A stretch of DNA of 64,000 nucleotides from Acidobacteriota bacterium (GTDB taxonomy: Bacteria; Acidobacteriota; UBA6911; RPQK01; JAJDTT01): positions 128,001-192,000 of the forward strand of contig CBDCJH010000002.1 of the NCBI GenBank assembly GCA_965217775.1. The letters are read 5' to 3'. Below are positions 4,309 through 51,100 of this stretch, piece after piece. Both the position numbers and the translations under genes were made by a program. A model generated the notes under the pieces. That model was given only the letters and a program-made list of their open reading frames with translations. It was not told where the DNA came from and searched no databases. How positions within the stretch are numbered: position 1 is the stretch's first letter; the number at the start of each line of letters is the position of its first letter.

Positions 4309-4468
4309 CAGTCCGTGGTGAAAGTCCCGCGAGCACCGAGACCGTTCCTGCGGCCGCCGGACAAGGCGCTTCGGAGGGAGCATACCGGGAGTATGTGAGC
4401 CGATAGCAACGCAGTCCGCGCACGATGCAGGGACGGTCGAATGCCGTGACGACTTTCGCCACGGGCTG
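4309..4468 (-). mobile_element. MITE-like element copy 3 (subtype B), 160 bp, TTGA target duplication
   Basis: TTGA at 4305-4308 and 4469-4472; same terminal inverted repeats. Confidence 0.92.
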
Positions 4469-31358: not shown

Positions 31359-31363
31359 CTTCC

Positions 31364-32536
31364 TCAATACACGTCCGGCGCTCCCAGGCTGGATCCCCCT
31401 TCGCCGATCGTGTGTTCCCGGACGTAGTCGAAGTCGATGTCGTCCCCCAGGCCGGGACGCTCGGGAACCTGGACGCAGCCGTCCGCGTCAATCGGATCGT
31501 ATAAGGTCTTCTGCCACGGAAAGGGGAGGTAGCGTTCGATCATGGGATGGAGCAGTCCCCACTCGTAGAACCAGCCGTTGTCCATGGTGCAGAGGACGTG
31601 CATGTTGTGCGGGCCGCCCCCATGCACCTCCATCCGGAGGTTGAAGGCCTGGGCCAGGTGGATCAGCTTCAGGATCGGCGTGATGCCCCCCACTTCGCCG
31701 GTGCCGCCCCGCAGCATGTCGGAGGCTCCGTTCACCACCCATTCCGCCCGGGACTGGTAACTGCCCTCCAGGTTTTCCGGTCCCAGCACCGCCATGTCCA
31801 ACTTGCTGTTGAGCCAGACGTAGGAGGACATGCTGTACTCGTTCATGGGTTCTTCGATCCAGAGAAAACCCAATTTCTCGATCTCCTTGGAGAGGTGGAG
31901 CGCCTCGATCCGGTCGTAGTGGTGATGGGGGTCCAGCATGAGCGTGATATCCGGCCCGACGGCTTCGCGGACGGCGGCACAGGCGGCCACGTCCCGCTTG
32001 ACGTCCGGTGAGCCGGGGACGGGCGGCATCCAGGTGTGCAGTTTGATGGCCTTGAAGCCGTCCCGCACCAACTCCTCCGAGAATTGCGCGTACTCCTGCG
32101 GCGTGCTGAGACCCTCCGGGATGTCGTCGCCGGGATTGATGCTGGCGTAGGCCGGTATCCGGGTTCGCGCAGCGCCGATCATCTTGTACACGGGGATCTG
32201 CAGACAACGTCCGGCCAAGTCCCAGAGGGCGCAGTCCACGTGGGAGATCACCATGTCGGGCAGCGAGTTGGTGAGTTTCTGCATGCGCCGCATCCGTTGC
32301 CAGATCTGCTCCCGGAAGAAGGGGTCCTGACCCAGAAGGGCCGGCTTGATCCAGGAATCCACGATCTCCTGGGAAGGTCCGGCAAAAAAATAGCCCTCGG
32401 CTCCCTCGTCGGTCCGGATCGTCAGCAGGTTGTTGATGGCCCAGTGCTCGGGTCCGGGATGAGGGTGGCCCTCGTAGTCTCTGTGCCACTGGGTCCGGTA
32501 GCGGAAGGTGTCCACCCTGATGTCTGAGATCTTCAT
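31364..32536 (-). CDS. Mandelate racemase/muconate lactonizing enzyme family protein
   Basis: 'VDCALWDLAG', KAIKLH, LMLD, WIEEP, GPE, 'VPERPGLG'. Confidence 0.92.
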   Translation of the reverse strand: MKISDIRVDTFRYRTQWHRDYEGHPHPGPEHWAINNLLTIRTDEGAEGYFFAGPSQEIVDSWIKPALLGQDPFFREQIWQRMRRMQKLTNSLPDMVISHVDCALWDLAGRCLQIPVYKMIGAARTRIPAYASINPGDDIPEGLSTPQEYAQFSEELVRDGFKAIKLHTWMPPVPGSPDVKRDVAACAAVREAVGPDITLMLDPHHHYDRIEALHLSKEIEKLGFLWIEEPMNEYSMSSYVWLNSKLDMAVLGPENLEGSYQSRAEWVVNGASDMLRGGTGEVGGITPILKLIHLAQAFNLRMEVHGGGPHNMHVLCTMDNGWFYEWGLLHPMIERYLPFPWQKTLYDPIDADGCVQVPERPGLGDDIDFDYVREHTIGEGGSSLGAPDVY

Positions 32537-32609
32537 TTCTCAACTCCTGGTTGGGGCGCCGGTCCGGGATGAGCCGGCAATTCTCTCTAGTGGTGCTTAA
32601 ACGAAATAG

Positions 32610-34052
32610 TCAGGGGCGAAATCGAAACGCATAGATGCTCGCGTCCCGCAGGCGCACCCGCAACCGGACGGGTTTGCCGGAAAGGCCTGCGAGGTCGGGG
32701 TTGGACTTCCATTGCACCACGCCGTCGATCCGGTCGCCGACCATGGGGGCGCAATCCTCCAACTGGAATCCCTCCAGCTTCCCCCCTTCAGCATCCTGGA
32801 TTTCGACCTGTATGGAGCCTCCGCCGCTGGTCTTGTAGTTCAGCTCCAGTTCCTTTCCCTGGAAGAGAAGCGGCCGGATGGTGAATTCTCCCCAGCCTTC
32901 GTAGGGGCCGTCCACCGAAACGAAGCCCTCGGCGCGAAGTGTGCAGCGCCGAATCCGGCTTTCCCGTTCCCGGAAGAGATCCGAGTAATAGAGCGAGAGC
33001 TCTCCGGGCCCGGTCTGGATCACGCCCTGTCCCACGATGGGATTGCGGTCCAGCCAGTTGCGCTCGTCCGGTCCCGGGGTGAGGAAGGGCTCCCGGTAAT
33101 TCCTCTCCCATTGGAGGCCGTCCCGGCTGTACGCGAACCGCACGTCGGAGAGGCCAGGATAGGGCGCCCCCGGGTAGGAACGGTCGGTGTACAGGATCAT
33201 GGGAAACATGAAGAATGCGGAAGCGGCCCGGGAATACTTGACGGCGGCGTTGGTGTAGAGGTGGAAGTCGGGAGGGTCCTGCTCGTCGGCGGTGAAGACC
33301 AGCTTCGGTTCGGTCCAGTGGAGAAAGTCGGAGGACTCGGACCGCCGGATGGCCCGGCGGCCGCCTTTGAACGGCCCGGGCACCGACGGATCGACCCCCC
33401 TGAGGTAGATGACGTACCGCTCCCGCTCGTCGTCCCAGAGCAGGATGTTGTGGCTGTCGAAGGGACCGTTGGACAACAGGGGGTTGGTCGCCACCGGAGT
33501 CCATCGGATCCCGTCGGGTGAGGCGAACCCGGAGATGCCGTCGACCCGGGAGATCATCTTGTAGCGGGTCCCACTGCCCGCTTCCCGATTCGGGTCCAGC
33601 AGGACGCTGATGTTGGTGAAGTCCTCCGGCGGCCCCAGGATATTGTTGTCCGTGGAACCCTCGAATTCATATCGCCCCAGACTCGGTTTCTCCCAGACGA
33701 TCCCGTCCCGGCTCTCAGCGTAACAGGTCAGCACCGTGTCCTCGGGTAAGTCCTCGCGAGGGTCCCCCAGGGCGACCCGGTACCACATGCGAAACGTCCC
33801 GCCGTCATCCACCACCGTGGTGTAGTGGAGGCTCTTTCCCTCCCAGGGACGATCGCACCGAATCACGGTCTCTCCGGGCGTGGGCCGGTGCAGGGTCAAT
33901 ACCACGTTGTCGCTGTGGTCGAACCAGGAGGCGTCCAGCAGCAACTGCCGCCTGCTCCCCACGTCGAGCGGCTCGCGGACTTCCGGAGGCGAGGTGCAGG
34001 CAGAAGGCGCCAGCAGACCGCACAGGAGCAGCAATTTCCAAACGTCTCGCAT
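32610..34052 (-). CDS. Putative beta-propeller glycoside hydrolase-like lipoprotein
   Basis: Lipobox PSAC; repeated Asp-box-like SxDGxxW motifs; C-terminal 'GKPVRLRVRLRDASIYAFRF'. Confidence 0.7.
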   Translation of the reverse strand: MRDVWKLLLLCGLLAPSACTSPPEVREPLDVGSRRQLLLDASWFDHSDNVVLTLHRPTPGETVIRCDRPWEGKSLHYTTVVDDGGTFRMWYRVALGDPREDLPEDTVLTCYAESRDGIVWEKPSLGRYEFEGSTDNNILGPPEDFTNISVLLDPNREAGSGTRYKMISRVDGISGFASPDGIRWTPVATNPLLSNGPFDSHNILLWDDERERYVIYLRGVDPSVPGPFKGGRRAIRRSESSDFLHWTEPKLVFTADEQDPPDFHLYTNAAVKYSRAASAFFMFPMILYTDRSYPGAPYPGLSDVRFAYSRDGLQWERNYREPFLTPGPDERNWLDRNPIVGQGVIQTGPGELSLYYSDLFRERESRIRRCTLRAEGFVSVDGPYEGWGEFTIRPLLFQGKELELNYKTSGGGSIQVEIQDAEGGKLEGFQLEDCAPMVGDRIDGVVQWKSNPDLAGLSGKPVRLRVRLRDASIYAFRFRP

Positions 34053-34180
34053 GCTGTCAACCCTCCACGCCGGAGCGCCAAGTCTACTACGTCCGGGCGC
34101 AGAAAATGCAGGGCAATGGTCCATCCGCAAGACTACGGGGCTTGCGGATAGCCAAGTCGGATGCGGACAATGAACCGGAC

Positions 34181-35386
34181 ATGGAAGAGACTGTTCCAGA
34201 CCGCGGCGAAAGCGTCGGCTTGATGGAGCCGCTGCTCGTCAGCGACACGGCCAGGCACCGTTCCGGCCTGGGCGACCTCGCCGTCGATCTGGCTGCAAAA
34301 GCGGCCGGGCTGCGGCACAGTCTGCCAAGGGGAGTCGTCAGTTCGCTGGCCGATCTGGTGCGGGCAGTGAATTGCCATTACAGCAACTTGATCGAAGGTC
34401 ACGACACCCCTCCGGTCGACATCGAGCGTGCCCTCAACGATGACTACAGCACGGACCCGAAAAGGCACAATCTGCAACTTGAGGCCAAGGCGCACATTGC
34501 CGTGCAGACCTGGATCGATGAGGGCGGAGTCGACGGTCATGCCGTGACGGCAGAGGCCTTGCGCCAGATTCACAGACGGTTCTGCGACCTCGTTCCGGAT
34601 GATCTGCTTGGGCTGACCGAACCGCAATCCGGAGACCGGACCCGGTGCATTTCGGGGGAGTTCCGCACGCGGGACGTGCAAGTTGGCCGACATGTTCCAA
34701 TCAGCCCGGGCGCGATTCCGCGCTTCCTGGCCCGATTCGAGAGCGCCTACGCCAACCTGGGCAGGACCGACGCCATTCTGGCGGCCGCAACGGCCCATCA
34801 CCGCGTGCTCTGGATTCACCCGTTTCTTGATGGCAACGGCAGAGTCGCGCGGTTGATGTCCCATGCCGTGTTGCGTGAAACGCTGGATACCGGAGGCGTC
34901 TGGTCCGTGGCACGAGGCCTGGCCCGGAGTGAGGGCGCTTACAAGGCACATCTTTCCGCCTGCGACCAGTCCCGCCGCAACGACCTGGATGGACGAGGCC
35001 ATTTGAGTGAGGAGGCGCTGGCGGAATTCACGTCATTCTTCCTGACCACTTGCATCGATCAGGTCGAATTCATGGAGAGACTCATCCAACCGAACCGGCT
35101 GCGGGACCGTATCCTGGTCTGGGCTGAAGAAGGGGTCCGTGGGGAACGGCTGCCCCGGCACGCAGGCGCCGTGCTCGAGGCGGTCCTCATTCGGGGTGAA
35201 CTTCCCCGGGGCCAGGTGGGAAGGATCCTGGGCGTCGGCCGCCGCCAGGCCCGGCGGATCACCTCAGCCTTGCTCGACCGCGGCGTCTTGACCTCTGCAA
35301 ACACCCGCGCTCCATTCAGACTCGCTTTTCCGGCCACCCTCGCCCACCGCTGGATGCCGGGGCTGTTTCCGGAGAGGATGCTGTAA
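34181..35386 (+). CDS. Fic family protein (class II) with C-terminal HTH
   Basis: HPFLDGNGRVAR Fic motif; N-terminal SNLIEG inhibitory motif. Confidence 0.93.
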   Translation: MEETVPDRGESVGLMEPLLVSDTARHRSGLGDLAVDLAAKAAGLRHSLPRGVVSSLADLVRAVNCHYSNLIEGHDTPPVDIERALNDDYSTDPKRHNLQLEAKAHIAVQTWIDEGGVDGHAVTAEALRQIHRRFCDLVPDDLLGLTEPQSGDRTRCISGEFRTRDVQVGRHVPISPGAIPRFLARFESAYANLGRTDAILAAATAHHRVLWIHPFLDGNGRVARLMSHAVLRETLDTGGVWSVARGLARSEGAYKAHLSACDQSRRNDLDGRGHLSEEALAEFTSFFLTTCIDQVEFMERLIQPNRLRDRILVWAEEGVRGERLPRHAGAVLEAVLIRGELPRGQVGRILGVGRRQARRITSALLDRGVLTSANTRAPFRLAFPATLAHRWMPGLFPERML

Positions 35387-35511
35387 CGGCGCTGTCGCTG
35401 AGGGCAATCCAACCCCGGGGTGAACTCGCGAGACGCTCGGTCCCGTTCCTGACTGCCAAGCCCGCTCCGATCGAGTTCGGGGTCTTTGGCGAAGGATTCG
35501 ATACCGGAGTG

Positions 35512-35710
35512 TCACGATTTCTCCATCGGTGTGTCCCAAAGTAGTCGAATCGGCACGACATAGAGCCGTTCACCAAACCGGGTGCACATCTCTCCGTCGT
35601 AGACGACCACACCTCCGGTGAAACGACTGCCCATTACCGCTTTCAGCTTGCGGAGGCCTCGGAAGTCTGCTCGGGTGACGGTTGCACCGGCCTTGATTTC
35701 CACTCCCGCA
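35512..35710 (-). pseudogene. 3' remnant of AAA-ATPase/DUF4143 protein
   Basis: 'GVEIKAGATVTRADFRGLRKL...GGVVVYDGE...RLYVVPIRLLW' is the PD-(D/E)xK-like C-terminus; the upstream part is missing. Confidence 0.8.
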
Positions 35711-35719
35711 CGCGCACGC

Positions 35720-35745
35720 AAGAAGGGGACAGTCTATTTCTACCC
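35720..35745 (+). repeat. Junction motif copy A
   Basis: aagaaggggacagtctatttctaccc. Confidence 0.85.
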
Positions 35746-35784
35746 GGACATTCCTACCGCGCAGACTCCAGGTAAGTGCCGTGG

Positions 35785-36117
35785 TCACGCCTCGTCTGTA
35801 TGGACGCCTGTGTCAATTGGTCTCATGACATGCGTCCCTGGGGCGATCGGCAATTCACGTACGACCGCCCCGATACGCCGGGCAGTGACAGCGAGATCGA
35901 ATTGGGTCTGGAGGTTTAGCCAGAATTGGGGATCGACTCCAAACCAGTGACCAAAACGTAGGGCCGTGTCACCGGTCACGGAACGCTTGCCAGAGATGAT
36001 CTGACTAATTCGGTTGGGCGGCACCTTGATTTGGCGAGCGAATGACGTAGGCGTCACACCAAATTCGGCGAGTTCGTCTTTCAGAATCTCACCGGGATGA
36101 ACGACACGCTTCAACAT
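35785..36117 (-). CDS. higA: HigA antitoxin
   Basis: 'HPGEILKDEL...PNRISQII.GKRSVTGDTALRFGHWFG...FWLNLQ'. Confidence 0.93.
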   Translation of the reverse strand: MLKRVVHPGEILKDELAEFGVTPTSFARQIKVPPNRISQIISGKRSVTGDTALRFGHWFGVDPQFWLNLQTQFDLAVTARRIGAVVRELPIAPGTHVMRPIDTGVHTDEA

Positions 36118-36137
36118 GTCTCACTTCCTCCTAGCTG

Positions 36138-36422
36138 CTAGTGATAGTCCACTATCTCGACATCGGTTGGACCCGGCACCCCGTCCGGCCACGTGAAGCA
36201 GATGCGCCATTTCCGATTAATCCTAATGGAATATTGACTGTCTCTCGTGCCTTTGAGGGCCTTGAGGCGATTGCTCCGCAAAGCTCTCAAGGTGTCCAGC
36301 GACGGTGCTGCGTTCAAGATTGAGAGTCGTTTCGCTGCCTGTTTTTCAAACCCATGAAAAGCCGCGACAAAAGCTCCACGGGCGAACTGCTCGGTTCTCC
36401 GATCCTGGTATCCGAGAATCAC
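36138..36422 (-). CDS. higB: HigB (RelE/ParE-type) toxin
   Basis: 'NRLKALKG...QYSIRINRKWRICFTW...VEIVDYH'; directly upstream of higA. Confidence 0.92.
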   Translation of the reverse strand: MILGYQDRRTEQFARGAFVAAFHGFEKQAAKRLSILNAAPSLDTLRALRSNRLKALKGTRDSQYSIRINRKWRICFTWPDGVPGPTDVEIVDYH

Positions 36423-36444
36423 AGCGGGTCCAGGGTATCCATTG

Positions 36445-36461
36445 TTGACGATGGACGTCAA
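36445..36461. promoter_or_regulatory. Putative HigA operator
   Basis: TTGACG-N5-CGTCAA inverted repeat just upstream of higB. Confidence 0.55.
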
Positions 36462-36492
36462 GCGTCAATGGACTAGTCGAAAGACGAGAGAC

Positions 36493-36517
36493 AAGAAGGG
36501 GATAGTCTATTTCTCCC
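36493..36517 (+). repeat. Junction motif copy B
   Basis: aagaaggggatagtctatttctccc. Confidence 0.85.
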
Positions 36518-36557
36518 GGTCGGTCATCCGAGGTGGACGCAGCATTGGCAAAATTTA

Positions 36558-36667
36558 GACTGCCGTCGCCGCTGGGGCAATGGTGGTGAAGGGAAAAGCC
36601 TGAATGACCCGGTCTAACGTGCCGGGCTTCGGATGGGAGGTGAGCGAATAAAAGATGGACGCCGCCA
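36558..36667 (-). pseudogene. Internal fragment homologous to the membrane-protein gene at 40282-40569
   Basis: Translates LAASIFYSLTSHPKPGTLDRVIQAFPFTTIAPAATAV*, versus LAASIFYSLTSHPKPGTLDQVIQALIFTAIGQAATAA at 40402-40511. Confidence 0.88.
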
Positions 36668-36670
36668 CGC

Positions 36671-36695
36671 GAGAAAGGGACAGTCTACTTCTCCC
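36671..36695 (+). repeat. Junction motif copy C
   Basis: gagaaagggacagtctacttctccc. Confidence 0.9.
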
Positions 36696-36749
36696 GGTCT
36701 ACGAGGCGAAGCGGGTTCCAGGTCGTCTCGCGGGGCGCGAGAGGTGGCA

Positions 36750-37136
36750 TTACCAGATGCGGTTGACGCCGTACCGGTCGAAAAGCGTCTCGATCGACAC
36801 GAGAGGCAGGTCCAAGGTCAAGGCTTGCGCGATCAACATGCGGTCGAAGGGATCGCGATGCGGACCCGGCAGCCGCCCGGCGCGTTGTCCGTCATGGACG
36901 GTGATCGGCAGCTCTTGGAACCCTTGGCTCGCGATGCAGCCGGCCATGTCGAGCGCCGCGGCTTCGGCTCCCGGGAGTTTTCCGAGGCGATACTTCGTAG
37001 CGATCTCCCAGGCGGACGCGGCGCTGATGAGGATATCGTTCCCGGGTTCGGCGATGGTGCCGTGGGCAGCCGCGGACAAACGTTCGCTGCCGCCCAACCA
37101 CCATAGGAAGACATGGGTGTCGAGCAGAATGCGCAC
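36750..37136 (-). CDS. vapC: VapC PIN-domain toxin
   Basis: 'LLDTHVFLWW', 'SAASAWEIATK', 'HRDPFDRMLIAQA'. Confidence 0.94.
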   Translation of the reverse strand: MRILLDTHVFLWWLGGSERLSAAAHGTIAEPGNDILISAASAWEIATKYRLGKLPGAEAAALDMAGCIASQGFQELPITVHDGQRAGRLPGPHRDPFDRMLIAQALTLDLPLVSIETLFDRYGVNRIW

Positions 37137-37141
37137 CTGGA

Positions 37142-37375
37142 TTACGACTCCCAGGCCGCCAGTTCGGCCTCCGGTAGCGGCTCGAAGAACCTGTCGTCGA
37201 CCACAACTCGGCCCTTCATGGCGCCGAACCGCCGGACACCTCGACTGTTCCCATAACGGACCAACCTCGCAATCGGTGTACCGTTGCGAGCAATCACGAC
37301 CTCTTCACCGGCCTCAACTCGCGCCAGCAGCCGGGAGAGATGGGTCTTGGCCTCATGTACGTTGACGACTGACAT
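37142..37375 (-). CDS. Phd/YefM-family antitoxin
   Basis: 'VNVHEAKTHLSRLLARVEAGEEVVIARNGTPIARL'; AAGGAG RBS. Confidence 0.94.
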   Translation of the reverse strand: MSVVNVHEAKTHLSRLLARVEAGEEVVIARNGTPIARLVRYGNSRGVRRFGAMKGRVVVDDRFFEPLPEAELAAWES

Positions 37376-37417
37376 GGTCGGACTCCTTTGACAACAGCCT
37401 CAGCTTTGGTTTAGCTA

Positions 37418-37448
37418 ATTGTATGACTAAGCAGTCGGCTCGCGTCAA
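37418..37448 (-). promoter_or_regulatory. Putative promoter of the Phd-VapC operon
   Basis: Minus strand TTGACG (37448-37443) and TACAAT (37423-37418), 19-nt spacer; TTAG/CTAA inverted boxes overlap the -10. Confidence 0.45.
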
Positions 37449-37500
37449 GCTCTTGGAGCGATTTCCCCGCCCCTTCCGGCAGCTTCCCTGGCAGAAGGGC

Positions 37501-37525
37501 GAGAAAGGGACAGTCTACTTCTCCC
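37501..37525 (+). repeat. Junction motif copy D (identical to C)
   Basis: gagaaagggacagtctacttctccc. Confidence 0.9.
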
Positions 37526-37547
37526 ATGCTTGAAGGTCGGCGATCTC

Positions 37548-37846
37548 AATGTCCGCAAGCGGCTGCTGATCCATGTATGCGGTTTCAACCTGGGGTTGCT
37601 GATGCGCCACCTGACGGGGGTCGGCACGCCCCGGAGTCCCCAGGGCCGCGTCTGGGCGCGTCCTTTTACGGTTTTTTGGACCCCAAGGGGCCGTTGGATC
37701 GGCTGGAATCGCCTACTGGGGCGCTTCTGGGCGTCGACCCGGCACGATTCGCTGTTTTGGGCTCCCGGAGTCCATCACTAGGCCATCTCAACGTCAGCGT
37801 TCGAAAAGAATATTAACCCGCGAAATCAGGATATTTCCACGGGCTG
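37548..37846 (+). mobile_element. 3' remnant of an IS1182-like element (transposase tail plus right end)
   Basis: 'NVRKRLLIHVCGFNLGLLMRHLTGVGTPR' resembles IS1182-type DDE transposase C-termini; followed by atttccacgggctg ending at 37846. Confidence 0.7.
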
Positions 37847-38283
37847 GTAGCCAGTCCAGTAGTTCCAAAATCGGGTAGTGTACCAGTTTGGGGCAGTCAG
37901 TCCATAAGTCCAACGGCCCCGTTCCGCATCCTCCATCCGCTAGTCTCCTGCCTGTTACTCCCAAATAAATGTCGTCACACTTATTCTAGACGACGATCGA
38001 CAGATCGGCTATGCGCCTAGCAGACTTCCCATTCATGATAACAACCTCCGTCTTTTTCACGAACCCAAACGGAGGAGTTTTCAGACACATCCTGAGCTGC
38101 ATGGTGTGCCGCTTCTATGTGTGGTCCTCTGCGTTCTCAAACTCTTCTGGCTAAATGTCATGTCCACCAAATCATGAGCGCAACAACTTTGTGTTGATCG
38201 GTGTTCTTGGACCAGATGACGGTGATGGTCAACTCCAAAGCCACGGAAAGCGCTACGGATGGGCCGTTGTTGCGAGGGGGTAA

Positions 38284-40281
38284 CCCAGATTATTCATCAT
38301 GCAAACATAAAATGGGAAAGCGTTCCCGCCATGTCGAGTCGGATCAGAGGGTTACGGGATACCCACAGAAAAAGGTCGAGAGCCGCCGTGGGTGAAACGC
38401 TATCGTGGTTTTCGACTCCGCCTTAATCTTTGGGTTCAGAGGGGTCCGAAACCCTCGCATTTCCAAGGTTTTCTCCCCTTCCATGGGCGGCAAAAAGAGG
38501 CGGCGTGCCCGTCATTTGTGGTATAGTTATGGTGTTACAAAAACAACCACAATAAACGGAGCACGCCACGCCTGAGACGATACCGCAGATCCGGCCCTCA
38601 TTCAACCGATCCCTCCGCCTCGAGACCCGCCCCGAGTTGCTCAGTGCGGACACGGGCGCTCTGGTGCAACGGGAGCTGATGGATCGTAGCGGCCTCATCG
38701 ACTGGTTGACCGAGCGGTTGCACGATCCGCGACACCCGAGTTCGATCCGCTATCCGCTGTCGGATCTGCTGCGGACTCGACTCCTGCTGTTGGGGCAGGG
38801 CTGGCGCGACCAGTCTGACGCCGACCGCCTGCGTCAGGATCCGAGCTTGCGGGTGGCGAGCCAGACCCGTCGGGGCACGGCGGCCTTGGAGGAGGGCACC
38901 GGGCTGGCCTCACAGCCGACCTTGTCCCGACTACTGGACACGCTCAGCCGGAAGGAGAACCTTCCGGTCCTGCACCAGGCGGTGACGGAGTTGGCGTGCC
39001 GTCGGATCGAGATGATCGAAGGCCGGCGGCGAAGACGGGGGAAAAAGACCCCACGGAAGAAGAGACGGAAAAAGACGATGTACCTGGACGTGGACGGTCT
39101 CCCGGTCGAGGTCCATGGGCATCCCCCGGGAAGCGAATGGAACGGATACTATCGCCAGCGGATGTACCACGGGTTGGTGGCGAGTTGTGCCGAGACGGGG
39201 GACCTGATCGACGGGGAGATTTTTCCGGGAGCCAGCTACCTGGGGAAGAAGGCGCTGAAATTGACGCTCCGGGTGGTGGACCGCTGTCGGGGGCGTCTGT
39301 GCGGCTCGATGATCGTGCGGATGGAATGCGGGGTTCCCGGAGCCGGGGCTGCTGAAGGGGCTGGAGTCGAGAAGCGTGCCCTATATCGCTCGAATCCGCA
39401 AGAATGAGGTCCTGAACCGGATGGCGAAGCTCTACTTGACCCAACCGGCGGGGCGGTCCCCGAAAGCACCACCGAGGCTCTGGTTCCATGAGTTGACCTA
39501 CCAGGCGGGGACGTGGGATCGGGCGCGCCGGGTGGTGCTGGTGGTGCGGGAGCGACCGGGGGAGTTGTATCTGGATCATTTCTGGTTGCTGACGAGCCTG
39601 AGTCGGAAACGATACGAGGCTCAGGAGTTGCTGGCACAGTATCGAAAGCGGGGGAAGGCGGAAGGCCACATGGGGGAGTTGATGGACGTGCTCGATCCGG
39701 CCTTGTCCTCCGCGAGCCGGCCCAAGACGCACTATCGGGGCAAACCACTGAAGCCGGGAGCCAAGCCGGAAGCGAGGACCGAGGCCGGGGTTCGCCCCCA
39801 CAACGAAGTCTTGTTCCTGCTGAATCTGCTGGGGTACGAGATCCTGCACCTGGGTCGGGTGCTGATGGAGCAGGCGACGCGTCGGGGCTGGAGTCTGCGT
39901 CGTTTTCGTGAGCGGGTGTTGCGAGTGGCGTCTCGGGCGCTGCGCCAGGGGAGGCGATTGATTTTCGTCATCAGTCAAGGGGCGACAGACTGGAAGCGGT
40001 TGTGGAAGAGCCTGGCGCGGGTGTCCTGGGCGCCGGCATAGTGGACGGCGGAGGCATCGGGCCCGTGGAAGAGACCGAAACGGTGGGAATTTCTCACCGG
40101 AAAGTCAACCTGTCGGCGGATGACGGTCCCTCTGGCCGGTAAACGGTTTATGACTGGTTCAATCGTCCTGTTTTTGAGCCGATTCAGTCGAATCGACAGA
40201 GCTTCAAGAGAAACTGGGCTGCGACCGCACGAAAACGCCGGGTCGGAAGCCCTTATCAACATGTTCCATGAATAATCTGGG
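38284..40281 (+). mobile_element. IS1380-family insertion sequence
   Basis: Perfect 14-bp TIR cccagattattcat (38284-38297) / atgaataatctggg (40268-40281) around the transposase; no target duplication seen. Confidence 0.9.
38568..40041 (+). pseudogene. IS1380 transposase, frameshifted, ACG at expected start
   Basis: 'LSADTGA', 'LASQPTLSR', 'LDVD', 'YRKRGKAEGHMGEL' split over two ORFs; atggaatgcgggg near 39321 has one extra base relative to VRMDAG. Confidence 0.85.
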
Positions 40282-40569
40282 CGAAATCGCTGCCGCTGCC
40301 AACCCAACGACGATCGCGACGAAGACAGACAAGACCAATTGCAATTCATAGTATTTTGTCCACTGAGGATGCTCCCATATCAGGTTGAATATTAAGAGGA
40401 GCGCCGCCGTAGCCGCCTGTCCAATAGCGGTGAAGATTAGAGCCTGAATGACCTGGTCGAGCGTGCCGGGCTTGGGATGTGAGGTGAGCGAATAAAAGAT
40501 GGATGCCGCCAGAATACCCGGCAGAAGAAATACGAGTACGCCAATCACCTCACTGGATGTCCAACTCAT
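40282..40569 (-). pseudogene. DUF6338-like membrane protein truncated by IS1380
   Basis: 'VLVFLLPGILAASIFY' start, three hydrophobic segments; the frame enters the IS TIR after AAAIS; lower GC. Confidence 0.7.
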
Positions 40570-41014
40570 GCTCGCTTAACCTCAAGAGCTATGGCTTACG
40601 ACGCATCCCAGCGGTCGACGAAGGTCGATGACGATTCGTAAACAACACTAGCCACTTGTCAATATGGCGTATTCTATCAGTCGCCACGGCCAACACCCCG
40701 ATCGCACCAAATCGCTCAATGGCCTTGGAAAGGCCCTCGTCGCCGATGTGGGCTCAGACTTCGACAATTCGATGCCGCCGTTGTGCGAGCGGCTCGTCCA
40801 ACGGAAAAGGTTGTCATCCCACGTAACGGCAGGAGTTGAGAAGGCGCGAAGGAAATCGTATTTCTGCGGCTTTTCGGCGGGGGCATCCCTGCCCACTTGG
40901 TGCCGTCTCCATCTTGGTCTTGTGAGCTACAAGACCGACCGTCACTATAGAAGGCAATGGTGGTTCCGCCAGGGATCGCGAACCCAGTAGCTGACGGCGT
41001 CCGGAAGGAGACCG

Positions 41015-42106
41015 ATGATGCACGGAGCGTGGACTCTCAAATGGCTTGGGGTTGTCGTTTTTCTTCTGGCAACCGCAGCTTGGCCCCGTGGCGCCATCTT
41101 CGGCGGCGCGGGGATGGAGGGGGCAACCGTCGAACCGGTGCGGTTGATCTACGACACCGACATGGGAAACGACATCGACGACGCCCTGGCGCTCGGCGTC
41201 ATCCATGCGCTTCAGAGCCGGGGAGAATGCCGGTTGCTGGCGGTGACCGTCAGCAAGGACAATTTCTTTGCCGCCGCCTACTGCGATCTCCTCAACCACT
41301 TGTACGGGAGATCCGGGATTCCCATCGGGATAGTGCGAAACGGGCCGACACCGGAGGACGGCCGATACGTTCGCCAAGTCTGCGAGGCCAGGGATCAGGG
41401 CAGGCTGCGATATGCACGATCTCTCAAGCGTCCCGGCGACGTCGAGGAGGCCACCGCGTTGCTGCGGCGCACGTTGGCGAGTCAGCCCGATCATTCGGTG
41501 ACCGTGGTCCAGGTGGGTTTCTCCACCAACCTGGCCCGTCTGCTCGATTCTCCCCCCGACCGGTACTCCCCGCTTCAAGGAAAAGATCTGGCGGCCAGGA
41601 AGATCCGCCTGCTCTCCGTGGTGGCAGGCAGCTTCGGCCAACCTGGGCCGAAGGATGGGCGCGAGTACAATATCTACAAGGATCTGCCGTCCGCGCGGAA
41701 GCTTTTCGACGCTTGGCCCATGCCCATCGTTGTGAGCGCCTACGAGATCGGGGCGTCCATCCTCTACCCCGGAGAGCGCATGCGGCAAAGTGACGACGGC
41801 GCCGGGCGCCATCCCATCCGCGAGGCGTACCGGTTGTATGTCCCGAGCCTTCCCGACCGGCCGACCTGGGATCTGACCAGTGTCCTTTACGCAGTGCGCC
41901 CCGGCCGCGATTACTTCCGAGTCTCGGCACCGGGGGAGGTGATCCTTGATCCGGTAGGCCGAACCCGTTTCAAGCGGGGCGGCCACGGGCGCCATCGGCA
42001 TCTGAAGATCGATAATCGGCAGGTTCCGCGAATCCGTGAACTGCTTGTGGAACTGGTGGAGCATTCACCACAATCCGCGCTCGGTTCTCCGGCTCCGGTG
42101 CACTGA
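41015..42106 (+). CDS. Nucleoside hydrolase family protein, exported
   Basis: DTDMGNDIDD motif, 'GFSTNLA', 'EYNI', 'TWDLTSVLYAV'. Confidence 0.9.
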   Translation: MMHGAWTLKWLGVVVFLLATAAWPRGAIFGGAGMEGATVEPVRLIYDTDMGNDIDDALALGVIHALQSRGECRLLAVTVSKDNFFAAAYCDLLNHLYGRSGIPIGIVRNGPTPEDGRYVRQVCEARDQGRLRYARSLKRPGDVEEATALLRRTLASQPDHSVTVVQVGFSTNLARLLDSPPDRYSPLQGKDLAARKIRLLSVVAGSFGQPGPKDGREYNIYKDLPSARKLFDAWPMPIVVSAYEIGASILYPGERMRQSDDGAGRHPIREAYRLYVPSLPDRPTWDLTSVLYAVRPGRDYFRVSAPGEVILDPVGRTRFKRGGHGRHRHLKIDNRQVPRIRELLVELVEHSPQSALGSPAPVH

Positions 42107-51028: not shown

Positions 51029-51100
51029 TGGGAGGGGGACAGTCTTGTCCCCCGCTTCAACACCGACCCGGAATCGGGGGTTGCAAACCCCCGCTCCCAC
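51029..51100. repeat. REP-like inverted doublet
   Basis: TGGGAG-ggggacagtcttgtcccc-cg ... cgggggttgcaaacccccg-CTCCCA: two palindromes with inverted TGGGAG/CTCCCA ends. Confidence 0.6.

Follow-up and report, generated by a model that had tools for sequence, protein, structure and literature searches.

A 25-nucleotide (nt) motif recurs in four co-oriented copies within a 64-kb stretch of an Acidobacteriota chromosome (G000:C2:128001-192000, hereafter the window), where it separates toxin-antitoxin (TA) modules and truncated gene fragments. The source genome, G000, comprises 6.43 Mb at 62% G+C in two contigs, the chromosome C2 and a 144-kb second contig C1, and its genus is represented by metagenome-assembled genomes only. 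We found that the motif is the end-repeat box of a family of 311-amino-acid (aa) HUH/Y1 transposases. Loose copies of the motif form co-oriented rows at the borders of exchangeable cassettes, and the presence, order and copy number of these cassettes differ between species and strains. We favor, with some reserve, a reading in which the motif (core GGGGACAGTC) is the end-repeat box of a RAYT-like HUH/Y1 transposase family of the TIRYT/TIRtron kind, the enzyme of which nicks and rejoins DNA at the box and so shuffles cassettes. A cassette-shuffling role of the repeat is a plausible hypothesis.

The motif is the end repeat of a Y1 transposase family

With up to three mismatches allowed, the 25-nt pattern matched the window exactly four times, always on the plus strand, and was absent from 100 shuffles (Table 1). 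This bears out the initial annotation of the stretch, which had described four same-orientation copies of which C and D are identical. Copy C plus four further bases is also identical to G000:C2:2766451-2766479. Across G000, the 9-nt core GGGACAGTC occurs 255 times, compared with 79 occurrences expected from base composition, and a purine-rich left arm is present at 170 of them. A profile built from these 170 sites detected 143 motif sites (E<0.01), 120 of which are intergenic as judged with a crude gene caller. The resulting consensus, RARAAR-GGGACAGTC-WMN-TTYTC, is conserved over ~25 nt, and more than 100 loose copies are found, mostly between genes, over the chromosome and the 144-kb second contig.

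The window itself encodes no cognate enzyme, as had been noted initially; the closest Y1 gene lies ~245 kb away. This gene was found through a Pfam Y1_Tnp search of the whole genome, matched with motif sites on both sides, and tblastn then gave 11 full copies of the 311-aa protein that are 83-100% identical, one of them with an in-frame TAG, as well as one fragment. When 600 nt on each side of the 11 genes were scanned, a forward-sense motif was present ~130-300 nt upstream of all of them. An inverted motif was present ~150-310 nt downstream in nine units, with a direct copy within ~220 nt downstream in the other two. A Y1 unit, consisting of the gene between inverted motif copies, is ~1.4 kb long, and nucleotide homology between units (84-96%) stops at the flanking motifs. 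Both the proposed link to a Y1/HUH (RAYT-like) system and the suggestion that a genome-wide search would place the motif next to such a gene were thus borne out, the motif standing beside 11 of 11 Y1 copies in G000 and the pairing recurring in other genera next to homologues of 53-79% identity.

The protein scored 37.3 bits with the Pfam Y1_Tnp model (cut-off 23), and 50.7 bits with the NCBIfam RAYT model NF047646, which is below the cut-off of 80 although the match covers model positions 3-144 of 146. The HUH histidines H63 and H65 and the tyrosine Y162 are invariant in 23 of 23 aligned homologues. Because a PDB sequence search with the protein gave no match, a fold search was carried out with an AlphaFold model (pLDDT 78, pTM 0.82). 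The best PDB match was 4er8, the E. coli RAYT on a REP hairpin (E 2.9e-5), followed by the IS200, IS608 and ISDra2 transposases. A C-terminal extension with a helix-turn-helix-like domain is a feature of TIRYT enzymes (see below); here, the Y motif is followed by ~130 conserved residues that are helical, at lower confidence, in the model and that match no helix-turn-helix family in Pfam at E up to 1. Database searches at E up to 1e-5 gave 554 relatives of the protein; nearly all of those listed are 307-315 aa long, and some are labelled 'REP element-mobilizing transposase RayT' by one source.

The pairing of enzyme and motif is conserved. For comparisons within the genus we used G000 and eight other genomes; since these relatives share ancestry, counts across them overstate the number of independent events. 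All eight relatives carry the Y1 gene (3-11 matches each, 73-92% identity) as well as the motif (9-57 exact pattern matches each, with none for a reversed-pattern control), and over the nine genomes, which are not independent, gene and motif copy numbers are correlated (rho 0.77). Beyond the genus, inverted RAGAAGGGGACAG repeats flank Y1 homologues at five of five loci examined in G009, G011, G017 and G023, the homologues being 53-58% identical in a sister genus and another family and 79% identical in a third family. A scan of one genome per species (185,579 species) with a stricter form of the motif returned 57 stretches, 56 of which are in assemblies labelled Acidobacteriota or Acidobacteria. 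Collectively, these data indicate that the Y1 family is the likely cognate enzyme of the motif, located outside the window, and that the Y1-motif system appears to be inherited within the genus.

The pair belongs to the TIRYT/TIRtron class

RAYT-like genes that are flanked by inverted repeats and not by REP hairpins have been termed TIRYTs, located in 'TIRtrons', and the excerpts of the paper available to us state that many TIRYT end-repeats share GGGGWSAS, that families of these repeats can be dispersed as singles, doublets and groups, and that an acidobacterial TIRYT group can be singled out (Di Nocera et al. 2013, PMC3733652). In excerpts of a later classification, TIRYTs are equated with subclass 2.1 TnpA_REP, which have a C-terminal extension and the flanking consensus GGGG[AT][CG]A[CG] (Quentin et al. 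2018, PMC6006769). The box GGGGACAG fits this consensus, and the motif and its enzyme therefore belong to the published kind. As far as these excerpts go, the two also agree in having a Y1 gene longer than classical RAYTs, inverted flanking repeats with the consensus, a dispersed repeat family and acidobacterial hosts. They differ in that G000 has 11 diverged gene copies and in that the loose repeats here stand in long co-oriented rows bounding cassettes and truncated genes. Cassettes, TA genes and synteny breaks are not mentioned in the excerpts of either paper. A search of the open literature found no paper on RAYT or TIRYT repeats as borders of gene or TA cassettes. The enzyme-repeat pair is thus a new member of the published TIRYT/TIRtron class, and the cassette-bounding co-oriented arrays were not found in the open literature searched.

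The system also resembles the REP/REPIN-RAYT systems of E. coli and Pseudomonas in its HUH/Y1 fold, in a gene flanked by inverted copies of an abundant extragenic repeat and in its apparent inheritance within a genus. In the portions of the literature covered, however, classical REPs fold into stable hairpins that have a GTAG-type foot, and a RAYT gene is typically present once per genome. Here, hairpins are weak, the GTAG foot is missing and the arms show no covariation, and there are 11 full gene copies in G000 and 3-11 matches in the eight relatives, with the RAYT model below its cut-off. Classical REPs also form compact doublets, whereas the repeats described here are separated by 0.15-3 kb of gene-containing DNA.

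Loose copies form co-oriented arrays that bound small cassettes

The motif sites are strongly clustered: 86 neighbor gaps are 4 kb or shorter, whereas random placement gave 13.3 such gaps (24 at most). Outside the transposase units, neighboring motifs are co-oriented in 41 of 46 pairs, and arrays are found at more than 20 loci in G000. The clusters sit in variable islands of small cassettes, which carry TA and defence genes together with a few enzyme genes and truncated pieces of genes. Among the 92 proteins predicted in eight clusters, ~24 are TA related (parts of BrnT, TumE, ParE, HigB, MazF/MazE, PIN/Phd, AbiE, DUF433 and Fic systems). Several others are cut-off pieces of oxidoreductase, transposase, integrase-type and restriction-type genes, and the remainder are enzymes or unknowns. 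The median array gene encodes 140 aa, compared with 339 aa genome-wide. A replichore-wide orientation bias was considered and set aside, as an informal reading of the site list showed that orientation switches between neighboring arrays along the contig. We also noted that the 144-kb contig holds 11 of the 143 sites, ~3.6 times the chromosomal density, in arrays that include TA cassettes, Fic, AbiE and a DruA-transposase fusion.

One alternative is that the motif is the site of another site-specific recombinase, either in an integron-like attC array without its integrase or in Xer/dif-type modules, and that the Y1 units merely insert at the site or carry it. Chromosomal integron arrays likewise have co-oriented short sites that bound small cassettes including TA modules, with strain-variable content and order and tandem cassette duplication. 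Tyrosine-recombinase gene fragments also lie inside one array (G000:C2:2115579) and a few kb from another (2753298 and 2771779). Integron attC sites, however, have RYYYAAC/GTTRRRY (R''/R') boxes and a long folded bottom strand of 57-141 nt, and the motif has neither these boxes nor such a hairpin. The integron enzyme is a tyrosine recombinase, whereas the enzyme associated here is an HUH/Y1 nuclease. No IntI was found, none of the 26 PF00589 (Phage_integrase) matches in G000 is in the window, and only fragments and no intact gene occur in or beside the arrays examined. In addition, there are many arrays per genome and not a single platform, and the pairing that is conserved across genera is with the Y1 gene. 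Xer/dif modules have 28-nt 11-6-11 sites bound by XerC/D in alternating orientation, unlike the co-oriented pairs here. The cassettes further differ from those of integrons in that they include cut-off genes and would carry promoters of their own. Initially, phd-vapC had been annotated with its own promoter and higBA with its own operator; the promoter scan gave a single promoter-like site, upstream of higB, against 0.9 expected from shuffles. We consider another recombinase improbable, and the initial rejection of integron and CRISPR readings is upheld.

A second alternative would make the motif a signal for regulation or structure, for instance a terminator, a hairpin that stabilises mRNA or the operator of a DNA-binding protein. 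Located between operons, it would then coincide with cassette borders only because both are intergenic. Consistent with such a signal are the 120 of 143 intergenic copies, a modest excess of array genes antisense to the motif (36, compared with 16 sense) and the fact that such roles are credited to REP repeats in the excerpted part of PMC3733652. Genome-wide, however, the motif shows no overall polarity toward flanking genes (36/32/30/23). The hairpins are weak and have no T-run, an Rfam search of window positions 34500-38500 gave no match, and the combined promoter and terminator scan found no excess of sites over shuffles. Coding sequences are truncated within a few nt of the motif, and the tie to transposase units is conserved. 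These findings leave a signal of this type very improbable as the explanation for the arrays.

Cassettes differ between species and strains

The content of the window locus varies within the genus, as does its order. In G003, window position 34089 is joined to 41126 with ~390 nt between. In G006, only copy D and a phd-vapC pair of 77% identity are present, and in G002 higBA has a motif on each side. The higBA pair occupies other positions in G001, G002, G005 (in part) and G008; in G001 and G008 it lies, like Fic, on the opposite side of the conserved block 31360-34094. Strain alleles were read from assembled contigs of four public sequencing runs. In contigs of runs X1, X5 and X7, 36474 is directly followed by 36668, and the fourth run has a near-identical joint. 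These alleles lack copy B and the membrane-gene fragment, with the break 3 nt ahead of copy C. One contig of run X7 also connects 37526 with 40862 through 12 other letters; this joint begins right after copy D, and the break thus directly follows that copy. A candidate joint from 36697 to 41129 was given no weight, as it rests on 27 letters that are just a motif copy.

Similar differences were seen at other arrays. In array L003, G002 and G005 run from a racemase-family gene directly to the motif that lies at array position 4372 in G000, whereas G000 has two extra cassettes inserted before this motif, 3-4 nt from its 5´ side. The same array of G000 contains a '58-aa gene', which corresponds to a longer gene of the relatives that is cut 7 nt 5´ of the next motif. 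A 697-nt motif-to-motif unit is present in three tandem copies in G002 (99.7-100% identity), and the 144-kb contig and the chromosome of G000 have five cassettes in common but in different order. Content and order between motifs thus vary across species, strains and the two contigs, as had been anticipated. That the junctions are artefacts of assembling repeats has a next to negligible chance. Independent contigs of four runs cover the junctions at A, C and D, and arrays of the same kind are present in seven other genomes of the genus, six of which are single-contig.

Breakpoints are enriched at the motif but not confined to it

Pfam and sequence comparisons confirmed the order of pieces given in the initial annotation, with the membrane-gene fragment measuring 107 nt. 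The 69-aa remnant ORF (open reading frame) has no Pfam match of its own and shows 40% identity with the C-terminal ~57 residues of an AAA_14 and DUF4143 paralogue of 534 aa. Its homology ends at 35710, 10 nt left of copy A. The membrane-gene fragment (36561-36667) is an 84% copy of window positions 40405-40511, inside the membrane ORF 40204-40569(-) 3.7 kb downstream, and its homology ends at 36667, 3 nt left of copy C; both offsets are as first described. The insertion sequence (IS) tail at 37547-37850 is 79-84% like the 3´ end of a 451-aa DUF772 and DDE_Tnp_1 transposase gene that is whole at four other loci, and it begins 22 nt right of copy D.

Homology boundaries within 25 nt of a motif numbered 8 of 12 (12.5% expected), 5 of 14 (4.4%) and 2 of 15 (4.2%) in three sets, a clear enrichment. 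Many of the breakpoints are 0-25 nt away from a motif, most often 3-10 nt outside the purine-rich arm. Among solitary motif copies, two of three tested are exactly at a synteny break, and solitary copies adjoin foreign DNA on one side and are not clean 25-nt insertions. In a self-BLAST of 170 motif flanks, alignment ends were enriched ~3-fold at -12 to -25 in a broad distribution with no sharp peak (minus denotes the purine-rich arm side, 5´, and plus the other side). Shared long flanks between motif copies, sought for a crossover point, yielded too few informative pairs, 13 one-sided and 2 two-sided.

A number of observations weigh against shuffling by the Y1 enzyme. A recognisable motif is missing near 26 of the 41 distinct boundaries, among them the two ends of the Fic cassette and the hotspot's outer edges. 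The initial claim of a motif at every junction is therefore not supported, only 15 of 41 being within 25 nt. The offsets are not constant either (-3, -3/-4, -7, -9 and -10, and +3 to +8 on the other side), and this variability argues against Y1 cleavage because a sequence-guided Y1 cut is expected at one fixed offset. Most of the predictions listed in the initial annotation came out positive, among them breaks at the motif, several of which are 3-10 nt away from it; the constant offset did not. At one solitary copy the T-rich arm, and not the purine arm, faces the conserved DNA. The arms look palindromic, in agreement with the imperfect palindrome described initially, yet the palindrome is weak and arm positions show no covariation. 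Ten stretches were folded as single-stranded DNA, and nine of them, including the four window copies (z +0.4 to +1.2) and two transposase-flanking copies, were not more stable than shuffles. The exception was one GTCACCTTCTC copy (z -2.7), and folding is weak on both strands. As the copies are not stable hairpins and the arms do not covary, a REP-style hairpin substrate is doubtful, and the designation 'end hairpins' is not supported, only one of the subtypes folded being better than shuffles. Furthermore, array subtypes of the motif (GTCACCTTCTC and similar) differ from the transposase-side subtypes (GTCTGTTTTTC, GTCTCGATTCC), and recent Y1 activity is not evident because the transposase copies are old (84-96% nucleotide identity). 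Finally, gene predictions in G000 came from a crude, home-made ORF scorer.

Several of these observations would be expected under the main rival explanation, in which the motif is a passive repeat. The loose copies would be decayed or solo Y1 end-repeats that survive in dispensable islands, and the differences would be made by horizontal gene transfer, deletions, IS elements and RecA recombination between the 25-35-nt repeats, with Y1 taking no part. The boundaries away from motifs, the varying offsets and the divergence of the Y1 copies fit this explanation, as do the movement of the Fic cassette without a motif and the abundance of IS elements and their remnants in the islands. Exact motif-to-motif tandem units would likewise result from unequal crossing-over of flanking repeats. 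Random survival, however, leaves the 41 of 46 co-oriented neighbors unexplained, as well as the unrelated DNA that abuts the motif within 3-10 nt at several independent loci and the solitary copies with foreign DNA on only one side. Moreover, the two ends of the 193-nt strain difference lie 18 nt ahead of copy B and 3 nt ahead of copy C and are thus out of register. This counts against homologous recombination, as repeat-to-repeat exchange would require the same register. On balance, we regard a purely passive repeat as rather unlikely.

A possible mechanism for cassette shuffling

Returning to an active role for the transposase, we propose that the box is recognised by the Y1 enzyme, which would nick and rejoin the DNA at this site, such that DNA beside one box could be excised or copied and joined beside another. 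We consider the chances of this step to be about even. Such events, if repeated, would give rise to co-oriented rows, to tandem amplifications and to truncated, 'captured' fragments. TA modules would accumulate in the arrays because they are self-contained and hard to lose, and might, as suggested initially, be retained by addiction. For the window, the order would be the remnant, A, higBA, C, vapBC, D and IS debris, with B and the membrane-gene fragment a presumed later insertion 3 nt 5´ of C.

IS200/IS605 elements move by 'peel and paste' between co-oriented ends, and IS91/ISCR elements mobilise neighboring DNA of variable length by one-ended rolling-circle capture with enzymes of a different (Y2) kind. 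The proposed mechanism would resemble the former, and one-ended mobilisation like the latter would explain truncated pieces that abut the next motif; the likeness is one of mechanism and not of family membership. The Y1 system shares HUH chemistry on single-stranded DNA with IS200/IS605 (IS608, ISDra2), which also have co-oriented end signals. It differs from IS200/IS605 in that the Y1 units have inverted ends and copies that are 84-96% and not ~100% identical, and from both IS200/IS605 and IS91/ISCR in having no fixed target or cleavage offset. As a tentative and more far-reaching proposal, the system might be a distributed integron-like cassette system run by an HUH/Y1 nuclease. In it, nicking of GGGGACAGTC boxes by the 311-aa TIRYT would allow DNA between or beside them to be moved, stacked, amplified and sometimes truncated. 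Many co-oriented arrays would be built in this way on the chromosome and the second replicon, as a shuffling reservoir for TA and defence cassettes.

Other features of the window and its relatives

Table 1. The motif copies and the pieces they separate, in window coordinates
Feature	Position	Strand	Basis or remarks
Motif copy A, AAGAAGGGGACAGTCTATTTCTACC	35720..35744	+	One mismatch to pattern; unchanged in contigs of four runs
Motif copy B	36493..36517	+	No mismatches; within the 193-nt segment missing from related strains
Motif copy C	36671..36695	+	No mismatches; identical to D
Motif copy D	37501..37525	+	No mismatches; retained beside phd-vapC in relative G006
3´ remnant (69 aa) of AAA_14/DUF4143-type gene	35512..35721	-	Sequence comparison with paralogue
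higBA-type TA pair	35785..36461	-	Pfam: HTH_3 antitoxin 35785-36117, HigB-like toxin 36138-36461
Strain-variable 193-nt segment	36475..36667	+	18 nt, copy B, 43 nt, 107-nt membrane-gene fragment
phd-vapC-type TA pair	36750..37375	-	Pfam: PIN toxin 36750-37136, PhdYeFM antitoxin 37142-37375
IS transposase gene, truncated 3´ end	37547..37850	+	DUF772 and DDE_Tnp_1 type
Strain-variable segment	37533..40861	.	IS tail, 2-kb IS and membrane gene 40204-40569(-)
2-kb IS, DDE_Tnp_1_4 kind	~38281-40283		Transposase split: overlapping ORFs 38637-39407 and 39376-40041
Fic-domain gene	34106..35386	+	Pfam

The Fic gene behaves as a movable cassette by comparison of genomes, without a recognisable motif, and lies on the opposite side of the conserved block 31360-34094 in G001, G004, G005 and G008. 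This block ends at window positions 34078-34094 in every genome of the genus with ..CAAGTCTACTAC.., a sequence similar to the right half-motif ACAGTCTACTTCTC. Either a degenerate half-site bordering the hotspot or simple conservation of coding sequence could account for it. Just left of copy A, 10 nt (35707-35716) are missing in all four runs, a small indel beside the motif. The 2-kb DDE_Tnp_1_4 element has at least 11 copies in G000 and more than 20 in G006, and the membrane ORF 40204-40569 overlaps, at its 3´ end, with the right end of this element.

Several other repeats were noted in the course of the analysis. Short tandem duplications adjoin many motif copies (G000:C2:5168917/5168934, 1813697, 1209536, 1818615 and others), with either the left half (GAGAAGGGGAC plus spacer) repeated upstream or the right-arm unit repeated two to three times downstream; one case is a 17-nt duplication of GAGAAGGGGACAGTCAC. 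A separate near-perfect palindrome that shares the core, GGGGGACAGTCTTGTCCCCC, is found at window position 51036 (G000:C2:179036) and at C2:825764, 1445675, 4379831 and 5686986, and could represent a further repeat family or a terminator. Yet another type, GATGCAGGGACAGTCGAATGCCGTGAYGACTTTKGCCACGGGCTG, includes a small hairpin and is present at G000:C2:1057726 and 1252821 as well as in the 'empty' hotspot allele of G003 (L022:4700-4760). A repeat of ~165 nt (L102:1298-1466, with an inverted copy at L102:346-511; G000:C2:955161-955329 and 954209-954374) has 47-84 matches in each of five genomes of the genus, those listed being 90-99% identical. It resembles a very active miniature inverted-repeat transposable element and is unrelated to the motif. 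Two other short repeats of ~110-130 nt, with many copies across the genus, lie at array edges (L003:5417-5546 and L004:5734-5850). Members of a large paralogous gene family, including L043:124-3225(-) (1033 aa) and L004:4092-5714(+) (541 aa), adjoin two motif arrays; the family has many copies per genome at 64-71% nucleotide identity, and the 541-aa member, the only one scanned, has no Pfam domain.

Implications

RAYT and TIRYT enzymes are common in bacteria. Here, a member of the TIRYT class is tied to a repeat that, in several genomes of a single genus, marks borders of exchangeable cassettes. Filled and empty alleles occur naturally, for example at the 193-nt segment next to copy C. Should the junctions have an origin other than the enzyme, the motif remains useful for marking flexible islands in these uncultured Acidobacteriota. 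If the enzyme does make the junctions, the TIRYT class would gain a concrete, testable activity with a defined 25-nt site as substrate, and the arrays would represent a second, mechanistically different route to integron-style gene shuffling.

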